IMG/VR virus record: IMGVR_UViG_2684623237_000002
Span: 8,215-72,214 of that record
Direction: 5' to 3' (one strand)
Length of the DNA: 64,000 nucleotides
From: a virus
Lineage: Duplodnaviria > Caudoviricetes
In this document: positions 21,020 through 29,682 of the stretch, piece after piece
Position numbering within the stretch: position 1 is the stretch's first letter
Layout of the letters: each line of letters starts with the position of its first letter
The notes under the pieces: model-generated
What the model saw: the letters and a program-made list of their open reading frames with translations, nothing else
Told to the model about the DNA's origin: nothing
Databases searched by the model: none
Translations under genes and position numbers: made by a program

Positions 21020-21486
21020 CCGACAAAATCAGCGTCAACTGCCAGGCCAAGCTCTCCGAAGTCATCACCAAAATCAGCGCCATGTACAAAGACAAGAAGT
21101 ATGTCGTCGTGACCCTGCGCGCGGGCAAGGACCGCACGCTTGACCAAAATCGGTTGTGGTTCGGGATGTACAAACGCATCGCCGAAATGACCCAGATCGG
21201 TGACGCGGCTGACGCCCGGCGCTACTGCAAGCTGCACTTTGGCGTGCAAATCCTGCTGAACGAGGATGCCGGGTTCCAGGCGGAGTGGTATCGCGTCATG
21301 CGCCATCTGCCCTACGAAACAAAACTGGCCATGATGGGGGAGTGCCATTTGTTCGGGCCTGACGGCTTCCCGGTAACCAGCCTGTTCAATCGCGCCCAGG
21401 GCATCAATTACACCGACCGCATCGCCGCCTATTTCACGGGCCAAGGTGTGGTTTTCACTGATCTACTCAGCAAGGAGGCTGCATGA
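21016..21486 (+). CDS. NinB-like protein
   Basis: RTLDQNRLW motif; nin position. Confidence 0.7.
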   Translation: MTDKISVNCQAKLSEVITKISAMYKDKKYVVVTLRAGKDRTLDQNRLWFGMYKRIAEMTQIGDAADARRYCKLHFGVQILLNEDAGFQAEWYRVMRHLPYETKLAMMGECHLFGPDGFPVTSLFNRAQGINYTDRIAAYFTGQGVVFTDLLSKEAA

Positions 21487-22073
21487 TCGCCAAGCAACCC
21501 AAACCGAAGAAGTGCAAGAACCCGGCATGCGGCATCAGCTTTCCGCCGCAGCGCCTGGGCCAGGCCGTATGCAGCCCGAAGTGCGGCCTCGCTATCAAGG
21601 ACGTGAACCAGGCGAAGGCGCGCAAGTCGCTGGCCCAGGTCGAGCGTCGCGAGATCAAGGTTCGCAAGGAGAAGCTGAAGAGCCGCGGCGAACACATGCG
21701 TGAGGCTCAGCAGGCGTTCAACGAGTACGTCCGCACCCGGGACCAGGCCGCCGGCCACCTCTGCATCTCCAGCGGCAAGCCTTTGGACTGGAGCGGTAAC
21801 GCAGTCGATGCCGGCCACTATCGCAGCGTTGGCTCCGCGCCACACCTGCGCTTCGATGAGCGCAACTGCCACGCCCAGAGCAAGCAGGACAACCGGTTCC
21901 TTTCCGGCAACGCGGTGGACTACCGGATCGGTCTGATCGCGCGCATCGGCCAGGAGGCCGTCGACGCCCTGGAAGCTGACCAGAGCGTGCGCAAGTACTC
22001 CGTGGAGCAGATCAAGGGCATCAAGGCCTACTACAGGGCAAAAACCAGAGAACTGAAGAGGGCTGCAGCATGA
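21483..22073 (+). CDS. ninG: NinG/Rap recombination endonuclease
   Basis: AQQAFNEYVRTRD, CISSG, DAGHYRSVGSAPHLRFDERNCHAQ. Confidence 0.92.
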   Translation: MIAKQPKPKKCKNPACGISFPPQRLGQAVCSPKCGLAIKDVNQAKARKSLAQVERREIKVRKEKLKSRGEHMREAQQAFNEYVRTRDQAAGHLCISSGKPLDWSGNAVDAGHYRSVGSAPHLRFDERNCHAQSKQDNRFLSGNAVDYRIGLIARIGQEAVDALEADQSVRKYSVEQIKGIKAYYRAKTRELKRAAA

Positions 22074-22615
22074 CCTATCGCAACGTTGTTTCAGCAGTAG
22101 TTCGGGCGCTCGCGGCCGAGACCATCAGTTCCGCCGGCGGCTGCGACTTTGAGCCGAAGGTGCAGTGCGCCAAACAGAAGGGGGAGATAGTCGGAAAGGA
22201 GGCGGCGTTTCTCCAGGACTGCTGGGTGTTCGGTCGGCTGCACAAGGCGCTCACCCCGGCACACTGGCGCGCGCTGGTGGCGAAATACTCGACGCACCAG
22301 GAACGAAAGCATGGCGCCATTTTGGAGCTCCTGAATTCGGTGAAGACCCCGGCGCCGAAGCGCTTCCGGGAATGCGCGGTGCTGACCTGGGCCATTCCGC
22401 AAGTTGCCGGTGCCGACGGCAAGCGTTCTGCCGCTGTGCTGCCGGCCGCCTGGTACGACATCACAAATTGGGATAACGACGGTAAGCCTGAATCTACTCG
22501 GTACCGGTGGCGCTCGACGATCCGTAAGACACTGGATGACCAGGTGAACGAGGCGCTCACTGCCGCTCAGGAACTGCTTGATGCAGAGGGATTAATCGAA
22601 AGTTGTGTGGCGTAG
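22070..22615 (+). CDS. Late antiterminator (Q-position)
   Basis: Position after ninG; followed by promoter-like sequence (TTGCAA 22626) and terminator. Confidence 0.65.
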   Translation: MTYRNVVSAVVRALAAETISSAGGCDFEPKVQCAKQKGEIVGKEAAFLQDCWVFGRLHKALTPAHWRALVAKYSTHQERKHGAILELLNSVKTPAPKRFRECAVLTWAIPQVAGADGKRSAAVLPAAWYDITNWDNDGKPESTRYRWRSTIRKTLDDQVNEALTAAQELLDAEGLIESCVA

Positions 22616-22695
22616 TAAAAAGCCGTTGCAATGAGTGAGAAAGTGAGAGAGTATTTACCCATCCTATCGATCTTGCGCGTTAGGGGTTCACACTG

Positions 22696-22724
22696 AAAAG
22701 CCCGGCTTATATGTCGGGCTTTTT
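22696..22724 (+). terminator. Intrinsic terminator (tR'-like)
   Basis: AAAAGCCCGGC-loop-GTCGGGCTTTTT. Confidence 0.75.
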
Positions 22725-22785
22725 ATTGCGCTCAGTTTGTGCAAGGTCGAAAATAGAGCTTCCGACTATAAACTGGGAGAGCGTC

Positions 22786-23019
22786 ATGGTTTTGCGTGGC
22801 ATGGCACAGATGCATGTCGACGACTTGGCGGAACGGTTCAAGAAGTTGGTTGTAGGGCAGGCTGGCAACGCGGATATTCAGTTAGCGTGGGTTGTTTTTT
22901 ATCAGGGCAGAATGTTCGGAGCTTATTCAACGGCCGAGCTTGCACTGAAGAAAATAACGGACATTGAGCACTGCATCAGCATCGACGAGGCCCCAGTCCC
23001 TCAAACTTCAAGCGACTAA
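22786..23019 (+). CDS. Small moron hypothetical protein
   Basis: GGAG RBS; bounded by terminators 22696-22724 and 23030-23055. Confidence 0.6.
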   Translation: MVLRGMAQMHVDDLAERFKKLVVGQAGNADIQLAWVVFYQGRMFGAYSTAELALKKITDIEHCISIDEAPVPQTSSD

Positions 23020-23096
23020 ATTTTTTATGAAGCCCCGCCTAGAGCGGGGTTTTTTATTGCCCACGGAAAGGGCGATTCAGCAAAAGGAATTTGCAG

Positions 23097-23303
23097 ATGT
23101 TGAAAGAATTCAGATGCGGTAACTGCAAAAGACTACTCGCCCGTACGGGTGGGTTTACAGAGCTCCAGATCAAATGTTCCCGATGTGGGACGCTGAATCA
23201 TGTGAAGGCCACGAGCCTCGAGCAATCGCCTTTGAGCGACACGAACGCGGGATCTTCCGCAATCATTTGTCCGACTCAAAAGGTGAATACATGTCTTACC
23301 TGA
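23097..23303 (+). CDS. com: Com-family (Mu Com-like) zinc-finger regulator
   Basis: EFRCGNCKRLLA...IKCSRCGTLN; overlaps start of next gene as Mu com overlaps mom. Confidence 0.85.
   Translation: MLKEFRCGNCKRLLARTGGFTELQIKCSRCGTLNHVKATSLEQSPLSDTNAGSSAIICPTQKVNTCLT
23204..23293 (+). repeat. Three-hairpin leader, copy 1 (inside com 3' end, ends at bacteriocin ATG)
   Basis: About 75% identical (manual alignment) to 24216-24306. Confidence 0.85.
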
Positions 23304-24160
23304 CCCCCTTCACAGCCAATGGCAGCTCCGTGCTCCCGCCGCGAAACCTCATGAGCGCTGGCCAGTTTCTGCAGTCTCCGAATAAGCGCTTCCGGCTGAT
23401 CTATCAACCAGATGAGAATCTGGCGCTATACGATGGCGATACAGCTGTGTGGATTGCAGACTCAAATAGTGCGTACGCAACCCAGATGATCTACCAATGG
23501 AAAGCCGTATCCACACCCCAGGTTTTCATGAACTACAGCCTGGTGCTGAACGACTTTAGTCGTCAGCGTATTTGGCAGACAAAAAACAGCGACGTACCGG
23601 GCGGCGATAAGTATTTCGATACTCTTGCACAGCGAACTCATCTTCAGCTGCAGGACGACGGCAATATGGTGATCGTTGAGTTGGCTCCGCTTTGGACCAC
23701 CTCAGGCCTTCCCATTGTTTACGATCAACCGTCATACATCTTCCCACCCAACACTTCCCTTGAGGTAGGTAAGATCTACAGCGTTGGTAGCTTTGGAGTG
23801 GTGTTCCAGGGTGACGGAAACTTGGTTGTCTACGGTCCTGGCAGCTCTGTTGTTTGGGCGAGTTACACCCAGGGTAAGGGCGCTACCAGTTGCGTGTTCC
23901 AGGGTGACGGCAACCTCGTGATTTACAACGCTGCCGGTGTTGCGCTGTGGCATACCCATACAGGTGGTAACCCAGATGCGGTTCTGAGCCTTCAGGCAAA
24001 CGGCCGGCTCACCATCACTCAGGCGCGTCCCGCTTGGGCTCGATTTGGCTACACGCCGACGATCCGCGCTCGCAAAGTGTACTACCCGAACAACGCTGAT
24101 CCGGAGCAAAACAGCACCAGTCCGTACCCGACTTATGGCCATATCGGCTATGAGTTCTAA
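23291..24160 (+). CDS. llpA: Lectin-like (L-type) bacteriocin, tandem MMBL domains
   Basis: QxDxNxVxY-type motifs QPDENLALY, QDDGNMVIV, QGDGNLVVY, QGDGNLVIY; W.RFGY.P tail; AGGTGA RBS. Confidence 0.88.
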   Translation: MSYLTPFTANGSSVLPPRNLMSAGQFLQSPNKRFRLIYQPDENLALYDGDTAVWIADSNSAYATQMIYQWKAVSTPQVFMNYSLVLNDFSRQRIWQTKNSDVPGGDKYFDTLAQRTHLQLQDDGNMVIVELAPLWTTSGLPIVYDQPSYIFPPNTSLEVGKIYSVGSFGVVFQGDGNLVVYGPGSSVVWASYTQGKGATSCVFQGDGNLVIYNAAGVALWHTHTGGNPDAVLSLQANGRLTITQARPAWARFGYTPTIRARKVYYPNNADPEQNSTSPYPTYGHIGYEF

Positions 24161-24215
24161 ACACTGACGGATGTGCCCATTCAGGCCCGCGGCATTGTAG
24201 TGGGCCTAGTTACAA

Positions 24216-24306
24216 GAAGGTCGAGAACCTCACCTCATCGCCTCTGAGCGACATGAAAGCGGAAATCTTCCGCGATAAATCATTCGACTCAATAGGTGAA
24301 AAAATG
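24216..24306 (+). repeat. Three-hairpin leader, copy 2 (ends at ATG of second cargo gene)
   Basis: Same hairpins and CGACTCAA-AGGTGAA-ATG block as copy 1. Confidence 0.85.
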
Positions 24307-24636
24307 GCTGTACGTACCCTCGGTAAATATTTCAAAAATACATCCTTCAATGGCAATGCAATCTCAATCGCTACCTTGATTGCCCCTGAAGATAACCTGC
24401 ACGGTGTCATCCTGCGATCCAAGACAGGTGGTGCTGATACCAGTTACGGCAAGAAGGCTCCGCCACCAGGTAACCGCTTCGATGTCAGCCTGATCCAAAT
24501 TCCAAGCGTCATGCTTTCCTATAACGATGTCCTGATTCCGGCAGGTAATGGGTTGTTCATGAACCTTTCGGCTGATTACACCATCAACATCGCAATGTCC
24601 TGGGACGTACTCAACGCCGATGGCACTGTTGCGTAA
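24304..24636 (+). CDS. Second cargo protein, 110 aa, beta-rich, unknown function
   Basis: Start defined by duplicated leader/RBS; terminator 24716-24742 downstream. Confidence 0.75.
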   Translation: MAVRTLGKYFKNTSFNGNAISIATLIAPEDNLHGVILRSKTGGADTSYGKKAPPPGNRFDVSLIQIPSVMLSYNDVLIPAGNGLFMNLSADYTINIAMSWDVLNADGTVA

Positions 24637-24829
24637 GTCACGCTGAAGGATGGAGCCCCGGGTAAGAAGGGGGCTCTCAAGCAACGCCGCGTGGCTGAGA
24701 TCACGCAACTATTCAAGGCCCCTCCATTGTGCGGGGCTTTTTCGTATTCGGCCCCACCACATCCATCGCTCTGAGCTGGGAGTGCCACTGGGGCTGACCT
24801 CTTCAAACATGCCCCACGGAGTCGAGCGC

Positions 24830-25168
24830 ATGGAGTATCTACAGCGCCTGCTCGACAAGATCGACAGGTTCGAATTACTGATTGCGGGCCTCGTCGGCGC
24901 CGTGATCGCCAGCTGGTGGCACAAGGACGACTTGAACGACTGGCGTGCCTGGATGATCTTCCTCATCACCGGCATGGCCTGCTCGATCTACCTGACGAGC
25001 ATGGTCAGCACCTACCTGGGTGTGACGGAGCCGAAGATCGTCGCCGGCATCGGCTTCCTGCTGGGTGCATTCGGCGGTTCGCTCCTGGCGGCCATCAATC
25101 GAGCCATCAAATCCGCTGACCTCTGGGCGCTCATTCGCCAGCGGTTCGGGGGAGGCAATCCACCATGA
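24830..25168 (+). CDS. Holin
   Basis: Three TM helices, small size, late-operon position. Confidence 0.8.
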   Translation: MEYLQRLLDKIDRFELLIAGLVGAVIASWWHKDDLNDWRAWMIFLITGMACSIYLTSMVSTYLGVTEPKIVAGIGFLLGAFGGSLLAAINRAIKSADLWALIRQRFGGGNPP

Positions 25169-25509
25169 ATCTTGAACTGATCAACTCCATCGCCTGCGGC
25201 CTTATCGCGCTGTGGGCAGCCTGGTGCGTACTGAGCGGGAAGGTGAGGGACGGCATTCTGGGCAAGCTGATCTACTCGGCCATTGCCATCAGCGGTTTCG
25301 TCGTTATGGCGCGCAGCCAGAACATTTTCTTTGGCCCGAGCAGTGCCGGCCTGACCCTGCATGTGTCCCTGGCCCTGGCCGGAGCCCGCCATGTCTTCAT
25401 GGTCACGTACTGGCAACGGGTGAAGGTCTGGCTGTGCCGGACGTTGAACTGCGAACACTGCCTGCACTGTGACAAAGCGCCTGGTGGTGTCGAGCGGCGG
25501 GGCAAGTAG
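25165..25509 (+). CDS. Holin-associated membrane protein
   Basis: Three TMs; ATGA overlap with holin. Confidence 0.75.
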   Translation: MNLELINSIACGLIALWAAWCVLSGKVRDGILGKLIYSAIAISGFVVMARSQNIFFGPSSAGLTLHVSLALAGARHVFMVTYWQRVKVWLCRTLNCEHCLHCDKAPGGVERRGK

Positions 25510-25849: not shown

Positions 25850-26227
25850 ATGTACAAGTCTCTCTTCGCGGTAATCATTGGTGGCAGCTTCGGCTGTGTG
25901 CTTCGGTGGGCGCTTGCCTTGAAGTTTAATGGTGCGTTCCCCAGCATGCCGCTGGGTACGCTCCTCGTTAACCTGATTGGCGGACTCATCATAGGGTGCG
26001 CCATGGCCTTCTTTATCAAGATGCCAGATCTCGATCCTGCGTGGCGATTGCTCGTTACCACGGGTTTCTGTGGCGGGCTGACTACGTTTTCAACGTTCTC
26101 CGCTGAAATCGTATTCATGCTGCAAGAAGGTAGATTCGGCTGGGCTGCTGCTACGGTGCTCACGCATGTCCTGGGGTCGTTGTTGATGACCTTCATCGGC
26201 TTCGGGCTAGTGACGGCGCTGGATTAA
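25850..26227 (+). CDS. crcB: Fluoride channel Fluc/CrcB
   Basis: GG..G...[28 protein letters not shown]. Confidence 0.95.
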
Positions 26228-26924: not shown

Positions 26925-27386
26925 ATGGCAGCCCTGAACAGTGAGGTGAAAGGCTTCATGGTTCAGGCCTTGGCGTGCTTCGACACACCTTCCCAGGTTG
27001 CAGCGGCTGTCCGAGAGGAATTCGGCATTGAGGTGACCCGTCAGCAGTGCGAGGCGCAAGACCCGACCAAGCGCGCCGGCCGAGATCTGGCAAAGAAGTG
27101 GGTGACCCTTTTCCACGACACCCGTAAGCGGTTCCGTGAAGAGACAGCTGACATCCCGATCGCCAACCGCGCCTTCCGCCTCCGCGCCATGAATCGCTTC
27201 GTGGAGAAGGCCGAGACGATGAAGAACATCGGTCTGGCCATGCAGATCCTCGAACAGGCCGCGAAAGAAACCGGTGACATCTACGTCAACCGGGCACGGA
27301 AAGAAGAGGCTGGCGATGAACCGGTGATCCCGACCCGCATTCAGGTCGACGTGGTGGATGCGAGGAAGCCGAATGCCGAGCCTTAA
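26925..27386 (+). CDS. terS: Terminase small subunit (DUF2280-like)
   Basis: QALACFDTPSQV..AV.EEFG, PIANRAFRL; directly upstream of terL. Confidence 0.8.
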   Translation: MAALNSEVKGFMVQALACFDTPSQVAAAVREEFGIEVTRQQCEAQDPTKRAGRDLAKKWVTLFHDTRKRFREETADIPIANRAFRLRAMNRFVEKAETMKNIGLAMQILEQAAKETGDIYVNRARKEEAGDEPVIPTRIQVDVVDARKPNAEP

Positions 27387-29682
27387 CGTTCCGCAATCGC
27401 AGTTCCTCCTGTTACCGCACAAGTTTCGTGCATTCGTTGCCGGGTTCGGGTGCCTGCGAGGAAGCACCCTGGTTATGACTGAGTCTGGGCCTATGCCCAT
27501 TCAGGAAATCGATCGGCCAATGCGCGTTCTATCGTGGTCGGCTGCGAATGATCGATTTGAGCTTGCTCTAAGTGGTGGCGCGTACCCAAAAGGTGCGGCG
27601 ACGCTATTCCGAGTCGTGACGCAGCGAGGAGAATTTGTAGCAAGCGGACATCACCGCGTTCTCTGCGCTGACGGTAGCTATCGACGCGTGGATATGCTGG
27701 TCTCAGGTGAGATGGTATCTGCATCTTCGCAAAGCCTTCTTCAGACCAATTTGGCCGAAGTCCCGAAATCGTGGCACGCAGGTGATCAGCATTCGAATCA
27801 AAGACTCGCAGATTCACTGGGTCGTTATGCAGATGAAGCCCGTCGATATGGTCAACAACTTCTGACGGAAGCAGGTATCGGCCAATCTTCTGCTCGGCAA
27901 TCAGCCGATGCTGGAACATCAAGCCAGTCTTCCTTGCTTGAGGGTGGTCGGCCGGAGCCTGGACTAGCGCATAGCCATCCAGGTCGACAATTCTGCCTGC
28001 TTGGTAGCTGTGGTTCAGTTCGCCAAGCCGTCCTCCGCGACTCAGTCGATCTGCGTTGTGAGTCCTCAGGGTGTTCTGCACATGCTTGTCGCTGCACCCG
28101 AGAAGGCCAGCAATCTCTGCAGATGTCCGATTCTCTCCTGCAAGGGCAAGAATCTCCTGCTTCAGGCTGGATCGAGGCGCAGGCTTCGCTCGCTGCTTCA
28201 GCTTCAGGTTGTACCGCTCAATGCAGCGATAAACATGGCTGCGCTCGCACCCTGCAAGCTTCGCAACTTCTGATGCGCTGCGATCAGGCTGGGCAAGATC
28301 ACAAATTTTCTGGTCTAGAGGCGTCAAATAATAGCTCCGCAATCGAATCCTGCTACATTTTAAGCGTTGTCGCACTCGATGTGGTAGAGACTTACTACGA
28401 CCTGCAGGTGCTGGATAACAACTGCTACGTGACTGTCGATGGGGCTATCCATCACAACAGCGGCAAGACCTGGGTCGGATGCTCGGCACTGAGCAAGCAC
28501 TTCATGGAGTGGCCCGGCGTTAACGCTGGCTACTTTGCACCGACTTACCCGCAGATCCGGGACATCTTCTATCCGACCATGGATGAGGTGGCCTACGACT
28601 GGGGGCTGAAGACCAAGATCAACCAGGCGAACCACGAAGTTCACATCTACAGCGGCCGGCAGTACCGCGGCACTGTGATTTGCAGGTCGATGGAGAAGCC
28701 GCAGACGATTGTCGGTTTCAAGATTGGTCACGCCCTGGTTGATGAGCTGGACGTGCTGACTGCCATCAAGGCTCAGCAGGCCTGGCGCAAGATCATTGCC
28801 CGTATGCGCTACAACCTTCCGGGGCTGAAGAACGGCGTGGACGTCACCACGACGCCAGAAGGCTTTAAGTTTGTCTTCCTGCAATTCGTGAAGCAGTTGC
28901 GCGACAAGCCGTCGCTCAAGGAAATGTACGGCCTGGTGCAGGCCAGCACGTTCGATAACGAGCTGAACCTGCCGGATGACTACATCGCCTCCCTGATGGA
29001 GTCGTATCCGCCGCAGCTGATCATGGCGTACCTCAAAGGCCAGTTCGTCAACCTGACGTCCGGCACGATCTACACGGCCTACGACCGCAAGCTCAACGGC
29101 TGCTTCGACACTGTGCTGCCCGGCGAGCCGCTGTTCATCGGGATGGACTTCAACGTAGGCAAGATGGCGGCGATTACCCATGTTAAGCGTGACCAGGGGC
29201 TGCCCAGGGCCGTGGATGAGCTGATCGACGGCTACGACACGCCCGACATGATCCGCCGCATCAAAGAGCGCTACTGGCAGCACGACGGCAATGACTTCAA
29301 GAAGACCTGCGAGATCAGGATCTACCCAGATGCCTCGGGCGATTCGCGCAAGTCCGTGAACGCCAGTATCACCGATCTGGCCATGCTCAAGCAGGCCGGC
29401 TTTGCGGTCATCGCTCCCGCGGCAAACCCGCCGGTGAAGGACCGAATCAACGCAATGAACGCCGTCTTCTGCAATGCGCAGGGCGAGCGCCGCTACCTGG
29501 TCAATTCGCTCACCTGTCCGACCTACGCCGATGGCCTGGAACAGCAGGTGTGGGGCACGAACGGGGAGCCAGATAAAACCGCCGGCATCGATCACGCGAA
29601 CGACGCCGGCGGCTACTTCATCCACCGCGAGTACCCGATCATCAAACCGGTCACCGCTATCAAAATGGGATACGCCCGATGA
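27373..29682 (+). CDS. terL: Terminase large subunit interrupted by an intein
   Basis: Walker A GFG|SGKT split by insertion; Walker B LVDELD; TTTPEG; nuclease GMDFN, YPDASG, DHANDA. Confidence 0.93.
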   Translation: MPSLNVPQSQFLLLPHKFRAFVAGFGCLRGSTLVMTESGPMPIQEIDRPMRVLSWSAANDRFELALSGGAYPKGAATLFRVVTQRGEFVASGHHRVLCADGSYRRVDMLVSGEMVSASSQSLLQTNLAEVPKSWHAGDQHSNQRLADSLGRYADEARRYGQQLLTEAGIGQSSARQSADAGTSSQSSLLEGGRPEPGLAHSHPGRQFCLLGSCGSVRQAVLRDSVDLRCESSGCSAHACRCTREGQQSLQMSDSLLQGQESPASGWIEAQASLAASASGCTAQCSDKHGCARTLQASQLLMRCDQAGQDHKFSGLEASNNSSAIESCYILSVVALDVVETYYDLQVLDNNCYVTVDGAIHHNSGKTWVGCSALSKHFMEWPGVNAGYFAPTYPQIRDIFYPTMDEVAYDWGLKTKINQANHEVHIYSGRQYRGTVICRSMEKPQTIVGFKIGHALVDELDVLTAIKAQQAWRKIIARMRYNLPGLKNGVDVTTTPEGFKFVFLQFVKQLRDKPSLKEMYGLVQASTFDNELNLPDDYIASLMESYPPQLIMAYLKGQFVNLTSGTIYTAYDRKLNGCFDTVLPGEPLFIGMDFNVGKMAAITHVKRDQGLPRAVDELIDGYDTPDMIRRIKERYWQHDGNDFKKTCEIRIYPDASGDSRKSVNASITDLAMLKQAGFAVIAPAANPPVKDRINAMNAVFCNAQGERRYLVNSLTCPTYADGLEQQVWGTNGEPDKTAGIDHANDAGGYFIHREYPIIKPVTAIKMGYAR
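27451..28458 (+). mobile_element. Intein (336 aa) in TerL Walker A
   Basis: Block A CLRGSTLVMT, block B FVASGHHRVL, block F TYYDLQV, block G NCYVTVDGAIHHN then Ser+1; removal restores AGFGSGKT. Confidence 0.92.
27491..28327 (-). CDS. HTH-HTH-HNH homing endonuclease encoded antisense inside the intein
   Basis: Two HTH repeats (SASEVAKLAGCERSHVYRCI; TSAEIAGLLGCSDKHVQNTL), GELNHSYQAGRIVDLDGY, HRLIAEQKIGRYLLPSEVVDHIDGLHLHNDPVNL; GGAG RBS 7 nt before TTG 28327. Confidence 0.85.
   Translation of the reverse strand: MTPLDQKICDLAQPDRSASEVAKLAGCERSHVYRCIERYNLKLKQRAKPAPRSSLKQEILALAGENRTSAEIAGLLGCSDKHVQNTLRTHNADRLSRGGRLGELNHSYQAGRIVDLDGYALVQAPADHPQARKTGLMFQHRLIAEQKIGRYLLPSEVVDHIDGLHLHNDPVNLRVFDSNADHLRATISGLRPNWSEEGFAKMQIPSHLRPAYPRVDSYRQRRERGDVRLLQILLAASRLGIASPHLLGTRHHLEQAQIDHSQPTTIERALADRFPEWA

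Follow-up and report, generated by a model that had tools for sequence, protein, structure and literature searches.

Why should two consecutive cargo genes of a Pseudomonas prophage begin behind the same leader of about 93 nucleotides (nt), when only the first of them follows a com gene? The question comes from a 64-kb stretch of DNA, referred to here as the window, which belongs to a 72-kb provirus record (IMG/VR IMGVR_UViG_2684623237_000002) from a Pseudomonas prophage and in which a gene for a Com-type zinc-ribbon protein is followed by llpA, a putative bacteriocin gene, and by a second cargo gene. We think it probable that this leader is a Com-responsive translational switch, of the type known from com and mom of bacteriophage Mu, employed as a portable tag in front of each cargo gene. 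The features that matter most are the following, where aa stands for amino acids and the bit scores of the leaders come from a covariance model (R1) described below:

23097..23303, + strand: com, encoding a 68-aa CCCC zinc-ribbon protein (PF10122)
23200..23296, + strand: leader copy 1, a full covariance-model match (R1, 101.8 bits)
23291..24160, + strand: cargo 1 (llpA), putative LlpA-type lectin-like bacteriocin of 289 aa (PF01453 B_lectin)
24212..24309, + strand: leader copy 2, with no com upstream (R1, 92.1 bits)
24304..24636, + strand: cargo 2, a 110-aa protein (phrog_31751, E 2.9e-20)

The two leader copies (23204-23296 and 24216-24309) are 74-79% identical. A preliminary description of this DNA, a model's reading made from the letters alone, had already claimed a repeat of about 75% in which both copies end at a cargo ATG and the second carries a 1-nt indel, and all of this is borne out: the repeat consists of two blocks, 23204-23250 against 24216-24262 with 74% identity and 23252-23296 against 24265-24309 with 78%, and their spacings of 1012 and 1013 imply an indel of one nucleotide, which the alignment of the two copies places in the loop of hairpin 3. 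When copy 1 was compared by blastn with the rest of the window, a single match was obtained (73 nt, 79.5%, E 2.5e-12, 61.7 bits), while the best score of shuffled queries averaged 23.4 bits and never exceeded 29.2 bits (n = 200), so the repeat is far beyond chance. Each copy stops at the ATG that opens an open reading frame (ORF), 23291-24160 in one case (289 aa) and 24304-24636 in the other (110 aa). Copy 1 lies within the 3' end of com, whose 32 C-terminal codons are at the same time leader RNA, and the end of com (23303) overlaps the llpA ATG (23291) by 13 nt. No zinc-ribbon frame was found upstream of copy 2, cargo 2 thus having no overlapping com, and the stop codon of llpA is situated 56 nt ahead of hairpin 1 of this copy. 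An in-frame ATG of copy 2 (24253) was considered as a conserved start and discarded, as the same frame meets a TAG in most leaders.

The protein encoded by com is a clear member of PF10122 (E 7.3e-22, 77 bits against a cut-off of 22.9) and shares 41% identity over 29 aa with Mu Com (E 3e-9), both having the arrangement C-x2-C-x16-C-x2-C. Judged by its sequence, cargo 1 is an LlpA-type lectin-like bacteriocin, with repeated GDGN-coding units and a single stretch above the B_lectin cut-off (PF01453, E 4.6e-9, 37.2 bits against 32.4), and it clusters with 23 other leader-linked proteins. For cargo 2 no Pfam family matched. Its predicted fold is an eight-stranded jelly-roll (predicted local distance difference test, pLDDT, 83.9), its family having been modelled from 22 of 23 members; with this structure Foldseek returned nothing at E up to 0.001, VIA-align gave generic jelly-roll matches only (best Z 7.7), and the protein atlas gave unnamed viral clusters only.

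The leader is by no means peculiar to this window. A search with the Com protein yielded at least 77 loci, nearly all of them from Pseudomonas, and in the resulting comparison set of 78 sources an nhmmer profile of the leader found matches in 76. The near-full-length copies likewise number 76, and 73 of them run up to the start codon of an ORF that is 40 aa or longer. An alignment of 71 of these 73 leaders (A2), leaving out two with long insertions, served to build the covariance model R1, the tool that the preliminary description had proposed for scanning Pseudomonas loci. R1 finds exactly two matches in the 64-kb window and 102 leaders in the 78 sources, all on the com strand. By their upstream frame, 81 of the 102 lie inside an intact com, six behind a truncated or Cys-mutated com, and 15 are com-less. 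In the prophages and tailocin loci of Pseudomonas the cargo genes that follow leaders are of many kinds, and a single locus often has two to four leaders; besides the window, 14 loci contain arrays, with as many as four leaders in succession, as in L053. The 73 ORFs behind leaders comprise 24 LlpA-like proteins, 23 relatives of cargo 2, which is therefore the second commonest leader-linked cargo, nine DUF642 proteins, four colicin-M-like proteins, three secreted proteins of about 213 aa, three GH5 proteins and a handful of further proteins, including an alginate lyase and a levansucrase; the Pfam families of representative cargos elsewhere are Colicin_M, DUF642, GH5, alginate lyase and GH68.

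A second, independent survey, a pattern scan of IMG/VR from which 80 loci of 120 stretches are listed, gave 95 R1 matches, 75 of them in com, 16 com-less, two in com remnants and two at contig ends; one of the 16 com-less leaders (L120) in fact follows a com with a Cys-to-Tyr change. Replacement of a zinc-ligand Cys beside an intact leader was seen three times, by Arg at L055:4001, by Gly at L029:5177 and by Tyr at L120 (minus strand). In an even sample of 151 Pseudomonas genomes the leader was present in 37, with 56 R1 matches, and PF10122 in 42, including all 37 of the leader-bearing genomes; judged by coordinates, no PF10122 match adjoins 15 of the 56 leaders. In one locus of this sample (L205, G133:C1:2115500-2120500) a degenerate remnant of com and a leader that matches only weakly (35.8 bits) stand before a 188-aa ORF; an ORF farther downstream is recA-like by eye, and the setting recalls the published com-linked tailocin lytic enzymes. 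In the part of the window from 22600 to 25000, neither leader was overlapped by any Rfam covariance-model match with E of 1 or less.

What do the leaders have in common as RNA? The structural elements of both copies, including the Shine-Dalgarno (SD) sequence and the strand pairing with it (anti-SD) in the minimum free energy (MFE) fold, are these:

23206..23218, + strand: hairpin 1 of copy 1, AGGC-CACGA-GCCU, with CC-AC-GAG across the closing C-G pair and loop (sequence, motif)
23226..23239, + strand: hairpin 2 and anti-SD strand of copy 1, UCGC-CUUUGA-GCGA, Com-type with a 6-nt loop (fold, motif scan)
23247..23260, + strand: hairpin 3 of copy 1, GCGG-GAUCUU-CCGC, inside the long helix (MFE fold)
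23270..23286, + strand: 3' strand of the masking helix of copy 1, SD AAGGUGA at 23280-23286 (MFE fold)
24218..24230, + strand: hairpin 1 of copy 2, AGGU-CGAGA-ACCU, closing pair U-A, CC..GAG lost (alignment)
24238..24251, + strand: hairpin 2 and anti-SD strand of copy 2, UCGC-CUCUGA-GCGA, with a canonical Com-type loop (motif scan)
24259..24273, + strand: hairpin 3 of copy 2, GCGG-AAAUCUU-CCGC, with a 1-nt insertion in the loop (alignment, fold)
24283..24299, + strand: 3' strand of the masking helix of copy 2, SD AGGUGA at 24294-24299 (MFE fold)

All the hairpins that the preliminary description had named are present (AGGC-CACGA-GCCT against AGGT-CGAGA-ACCT, TCGC-CT(T/C)TGA-GCGA, and GCGG...CCGC), and the alignment confirms a compensatory replacement of C-G by T-A in hairpin 1. 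Its picture of a portable leader made of three hairpins holds in that the element recurs before diverse cargo, keeps its structure and carries the Com motif (see below), with hairpins 1 and 3 covarying; it has to be modified in that the hairpins are not three independent ones, since an SD-masking helix competes with hairpin 2. In the predicted MFE structures of both copies (-32.2 kcal/mol, z -2.22, for copy 1 and -30.1 kcal/mol, z -2.53, for copy 2) the strand of hairpin 2 pairs with the SD region, forming a long-range helix that encloses hairpin 3 and is predicted to cover the SD and not the start codon. The predicted cost of opening the region from SD to AUG is 12.8 kcal/mol in copy 1 and 10.8 kcal/mol in copy 2, with a median of 9.1 kcal/mol over the 71 aligned leaders and at least 5 in 60 of them. 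The mean pairing probability between hairpin 2 strand and SD is above 0.5 in 57 of the 71, and the mean pairing of the SD is 0.74 against 0.48 when the upstream sequence is shuffled, being higher in 67 of the 71.

Hairpins 1 and 3 keep their pairing through compensatory changes. Over the 102 leaders, in an alignment fitted to R1, 96.6% of the cells of hairpin 1 are paired, with changes on both sides in four of its four pairs, and 93.3% of those of hairpin 3, with such changes in three of four; in the unfitted alignment of the A2 stage the values are hardly different (95.8% and 91.5%, again with four of four and three of four pairs). None of 500 shuffles reached the observed values, and slid controls paired in 32-41% of the cells. 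Hairpin 2 has nine invariant letters across the 71 leaders, and as its stem never varies, covariation says nothing about it. Two other roles for these elements were considered and set aside: hairpin 3 as a terminator, flagged by a consensus scan, because the tail following it is not U-rich in most copies, and a pairing of the 5' strand of hairpin 1 with the anti-SD, seen in a constrained fold of copy 1, because the com-less stem variants do not preserve it.

For hairpin 2 it is the pattern of conservation itself that is informative. According to Nowacka et al. (2019, PMC6483171), Com recognises the motif CC(N)2-3GAG, presented by a hairpin with a short loop and a C-G closure. Systematic evolution of ligands by exponential enrichment (SELEX) with the Com of H. 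sputorum gave a closing pair that was invariably C-G. In 98 of the 102 leaders hairpin 2 reads [U/A]CGC-C NNN GA-GCGN, with 18 loop variants that differ at the N positions only. This combination of a fixed C-G closure, a C...GA loop and free N positions matches, at the level of sequence, the Com motif and not a generic stem. Hairpin 1 carries the motif as well in 85 of the 102 leaders, so that copy 1 of the window has it in hairpins 1 and 2 and copy 2 in hairpin 2 only. When the hairpin scan was applied to Mu, the known Com site was recovered as the sole match, and two loci from outside Pseudomonas (L078 and L079) also proved to have Com-type hairpins where com ends. The window as a whole contains 18 Com-type hairpins over 128 kb (both strands), three of them within the two leaders. 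Hairpin 2 being both a Com-type site and the anti-SD, its capture by Com would free the ribosome site.

Copy 2 and its like elsewhere might nevertheless be inert, that is, com 3' leftovers from stacked com-cargo modules that are now decaying. A graded series can indeed be followed among the loci, from a full second com through a 5'-truncated or mutated com to the leader only, and the Com motif of hairpin 1 is rarer in com-less copies (9 of 15) than in the others (76 of 87). However, such decay would have to be extremely uneven. In the 15 com-less copies the linker is down to an identity of 0.43 with the consensus and the 5' flank to 0.56, against 0.97 and 0.87 in the two switch strands, and homology begins within a few bases of hairpin 1, which is fully paired in 15 of 15 through five different stem sequences; the motif of hairpin 2 is kept in all 15, and every com-less copy still ends at a start codon. 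Divergence of linker and flank around preserved switch strands, together with a hairpin 1 that stays paired by way of five stems, argues against neutral decay, and we regard this explanation as improbable. The view in the preliminary description that linkers diverge under selection on RNA structure gains from the same figures and from the compensatory changes; that copy 2 might be a decaying com fragment whose structure is not conserved in other genomes, which it had named as grounds for giving up its reading, is at odds with the structure kept by the com-less copies.

If the leader is a Com switch, it could work as follows. In the resting fold the strand UCGCCUNUGAGCGA would pair with the SD region of the cargo gene (AGGUGA), forming the long helix around hairpin 3, and ribosomes would be blocked. 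The same strand, UCGCCUNUGAGCGA, could alternatively fold locally as hairpin 2, with a 4-bp stem, a C-G closure and the loop C-NNN-GA, while hairpin 1, a few bases upstream, would offer a similar loop, C-NN-GA, both hairpins matching the RNA motif of the Com zinc finger. Com, as the product of the leading cistron on this late mRNA, would bind hairpin 1 and capture hairpin 2, the anti-SD would be held off the SD, and the ribosome site of llpA would open. Since copy 2 has the same switch with no com of its own, a single Com should act in trans on the second cistron. We infer the binding, the activation, the action in trans and the timing with lysis from this anatomy.

Several observations weigh against such a role of Com, and they are shared in part by an alternative in which the leader is a Com-independent cis-element (perhaps a basal brake on translation, an RNA thermometer, a determinant of RNA stability or a site recognised by a host factor) and the com-embedded copies are opened by translational coupling. 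As for the RNA itself, the z-scores of the single folds are modest (-2.2 and -2.5), with 6 of 200 shuffles folding equally well; the long helix pairs in only 76-92% of cells, on an alignment that was fitted to it, and shows little independent covariation because its 5' strand hardly varies; and hairpin 1 is without CC..GAG in copy 2, where the closure is U-A, and in 16 other leaders. The com ORF spans the whole switch in 81 of the 102 copies, where its translation by ribosomes could itself open the helix. The loci of the com-less leaders L134:2136, L114:9207 and L149 (minus strand), about 12 kb in length, contain no com; in each, the leader immediately follows a CTG-N10-CAG box similar to a LexA operator and precedes an ORF of 110-116 aa. 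Five com-less leaders occur in genome G052, whose sole com, the only PF10122 match of the genome, is diverged and lies on another contig; in one prophage locus of this genome (L201, G052:C16:39000-46500, minus strand) three intact leaders in a row, preceding an LlpA, a 213-aa secreted protein and a 125-aa ORF, are accompanied by nothing but a com pseudogene with stops. Leaders so far from any intact com imply either that Com acts in trans across the genome or that leaders work without it.

In the one published experiment on the point, lscB was reported to be independent of com: in P. syringae a premature com stop left levan formation and Lsc secretion unchanged, these being data not shown in a background where other com copies may be present (PMC3899960). 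The levansucrase leader of our set (L056:3135-3234) has no predicted masking, with an opening cost of 0.0 kcal/mol, and such a loss of the mask would fit, as far as the folding model goes, the published com-independence of lscB. The GH5 leader (L064:205-304) still has its SD paired, with a probability of 0.72 and an opening cost of 3.5 kcal/mol. On the other side, hairpin 2 is conserved in the pattern of the published Com motif rather than as a generic stem, com accompanies the leader in 37 of 37 leader-bearing genomes, and coupling cannot work in copy 2 because llpA stops 56 nt upstream. We therefore hold this alternative to be unlikely, if less so than inert leftovers, and retain the Com-responsive switch as the better account of the leader.

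A further possibility is that the repeat is mainly a patch of homology for the swapping of cargo cassettes, with any effect on expression being secondary. One llpA 5' end is found behind four hairpin 1 variants (L005:4104, L044:4554, L051:4854 and L061:4478), L012, L015 and L061 have in common an upstream gene and the 5' part of the leader and differ in cargo, and the order of cargo varies between loci. These sequences fit recombination or cassette exchange within leaders, and the suggestion in the preliminary description that the repeat may let cassettes be swapped agrees with the llpA case. Homology alone, however, leaves unexplained the compensatory changes, the masking of the SD and the exact registration with the start codon, and exchange is compatible with a switch without replacing it; as the main reason for the repeat we find it very improbable. 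Beyond the switch itself, a wider scheme may be proposed, which we offer tentatively as possible rather than probable: Com could be a trans-acting translational activator of a dispersed regulon, in which a leader of about 90 nt marks whatever gene follows it for translation gated by Com. The tag would outlive its local com, stack into arrays of two to four, and sit behind SOS-type promoters or in other prophages of the genome, one Com would synchronise bacteriocins, secreted enzymes and lysis functions in several elements of phage origin, and the tag would double as a seam for cassette exchange.

How does this compare with known systems? As in Mu com-mom, a CCCC zinc-ribbon Com is encoded just upstream of its target and overlaps it, a hairpin carries CC(N)2-3GAG across a C-G closure (the Mu hairpin being AUGC-CUGCGA-GCAU), and neighbouring structure hides the start signals, here by prediction. 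In contrast to Mu, where the target is a DNA-modification gene, neither target in the window is one: they are a B_lectin bacteriocin and a 110-aa protein. The leader of the window has two Com-type hairpins, the second of which overlaps the masking helix; this predicted helix masks the SD and encloses a third hairpin, whereas the Mu structure hides a GUG start; and the switch is repeated, with some copies lacking com.

That com is linked to llpA and other cargo in Pseudomonas has already been known for some ten years (Ghequire et al., 2015, PMC4684702; 2018, PMC6240691; Srivastava et al., 2012, PMC3899960). According to the 2018 review, a PF10122 gene precedes about 90% of llpA genes as well as other tailocin cargos and a lytic enzyme, and the role of Com is still to be explored. 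The gene arrangement is the same as in the window, a PF10122 gene directly before llpA near the lysis cassette, but the sections available of these two papers by Ghequire et al. concern the protein and the gene linkage only, the RNA element, the masking helix and a com-less copy not being described in them. In P. syringae, the element named PAPE, found upstream of lscB, lscC and a GH5 gene, is a mobile block of about 500 bp that takes in a promoter, com and the initial codons of the cargo gene (Srivastava et al., 2012). Our levansucrase (L056) and GH5 (L064) leaders, from P. avellanae loci, are of the same kind; PAPE differs in having been interpreted, in the sections available, as a transcriptional element, with com judged dispensable for lscB. 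DNA adenine methyltransferases linked to com are known from Mu-like prophages (PMC3299994, seen in part). There, too, com lies upstream of a target other than mom, and to this group L078 and L079 may be compared, with their Com-type hairpins at the com 3' end. The genes that follow com in these two loci are, from our own reading, presumably methyltransferase-like. Such systems differ from the window in having a single target, and neither repeated nor com-less leaders were seen in the portion of that literature available. In a full-text literature search, which did not extend to supplements that may hold more com-linked genes, leader RNA anatomy, a masking helix, com-less copies and arrays were not found. 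What appears to be new here is that a probable Com switch of the Mu type has two Com-type hairpins, one of them overlapping the masking helix, and that it recurs without com as a tag in front of one cargo gene after another.

The module has well-defined neighbours. It sits between a NinG gene (21483-22073, PF05766) and two holin genes, and its edges are marked by hairpins:

23033..23055, + strand: intrinsic-terminator-like hairpin of 6 G-C-rich pairs followed by a T run (read by eye), the upstream edge of the module just 5' of com
24718..24744, + strand: terminator-like hairpin GCCCC...GGGGC followed by a T run (read by eye), ending the com-llpA-cargo2 module ahead of the holin genes
24830-25168 and 25165-25509: holin genes (phrog_2359 and phrog_2508)

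A consensus scan for promoters and terminators listed no promoter near com and neither of the two hairpins read by eye. Contigs from three sequencing runs part from the window sequence just before 23047. Joints such as 23265 to 24264 (one run, 85% likeness), possibly from other organisms with the order com-cargo2, were not used. The terminator-like hairpin upstream of com (23029-23055) has a loop that also matches C-C NNN GA-G, as have several further terminator-like hairpins of the window, in each case maybe by chance. The position of the module recalls the morons and other cargo of phage late operons, such as the lambda morons or the stx genes located between Q and the lysis genes. The cargo of the window is likewise placed between NinG/Q-position genes and holins and flanked by terminator-like hairpins. 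Classical morons have their own promoter and terminator, whereas each cargo gene of the window carries a putative translational switch instead. Farther downstream, the prophage has a CrcB-like gene (25850-26227, + strand, PF02537, E 1.1e-28) flanked by the holins and a phage metallopeptidase gene, and the terminase large subunit (27358-29682, + strand, Terminase_6N and 6C) has an N-terminal insertion of about 340 aa with a weak Intein_splicing match (E 0.0097, under the cut-off), inside which an ORF with helix-turn-helix and HNH_3 domains runs on the opposite strand (27491-28375, - strand).

The anatomy of the leader, with its two Com-type hairpins, its anti-SD and its masked ribosome site, turns the open role of Com in these loci into a testable mechanism, and a levansucrase leader such as that of L056, from which the mask is missing, provides a possible reason for the published negative result with lscB. 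If it is true that Com acts in trans on the com-less copies, Pseudomonas prophages would possess a simple, modular and protein-gated translational tag for timing their add-on genes, which might also be put to use as a compact switch for gene expression and help to annotate the cargo genes of prophages and tailocins.

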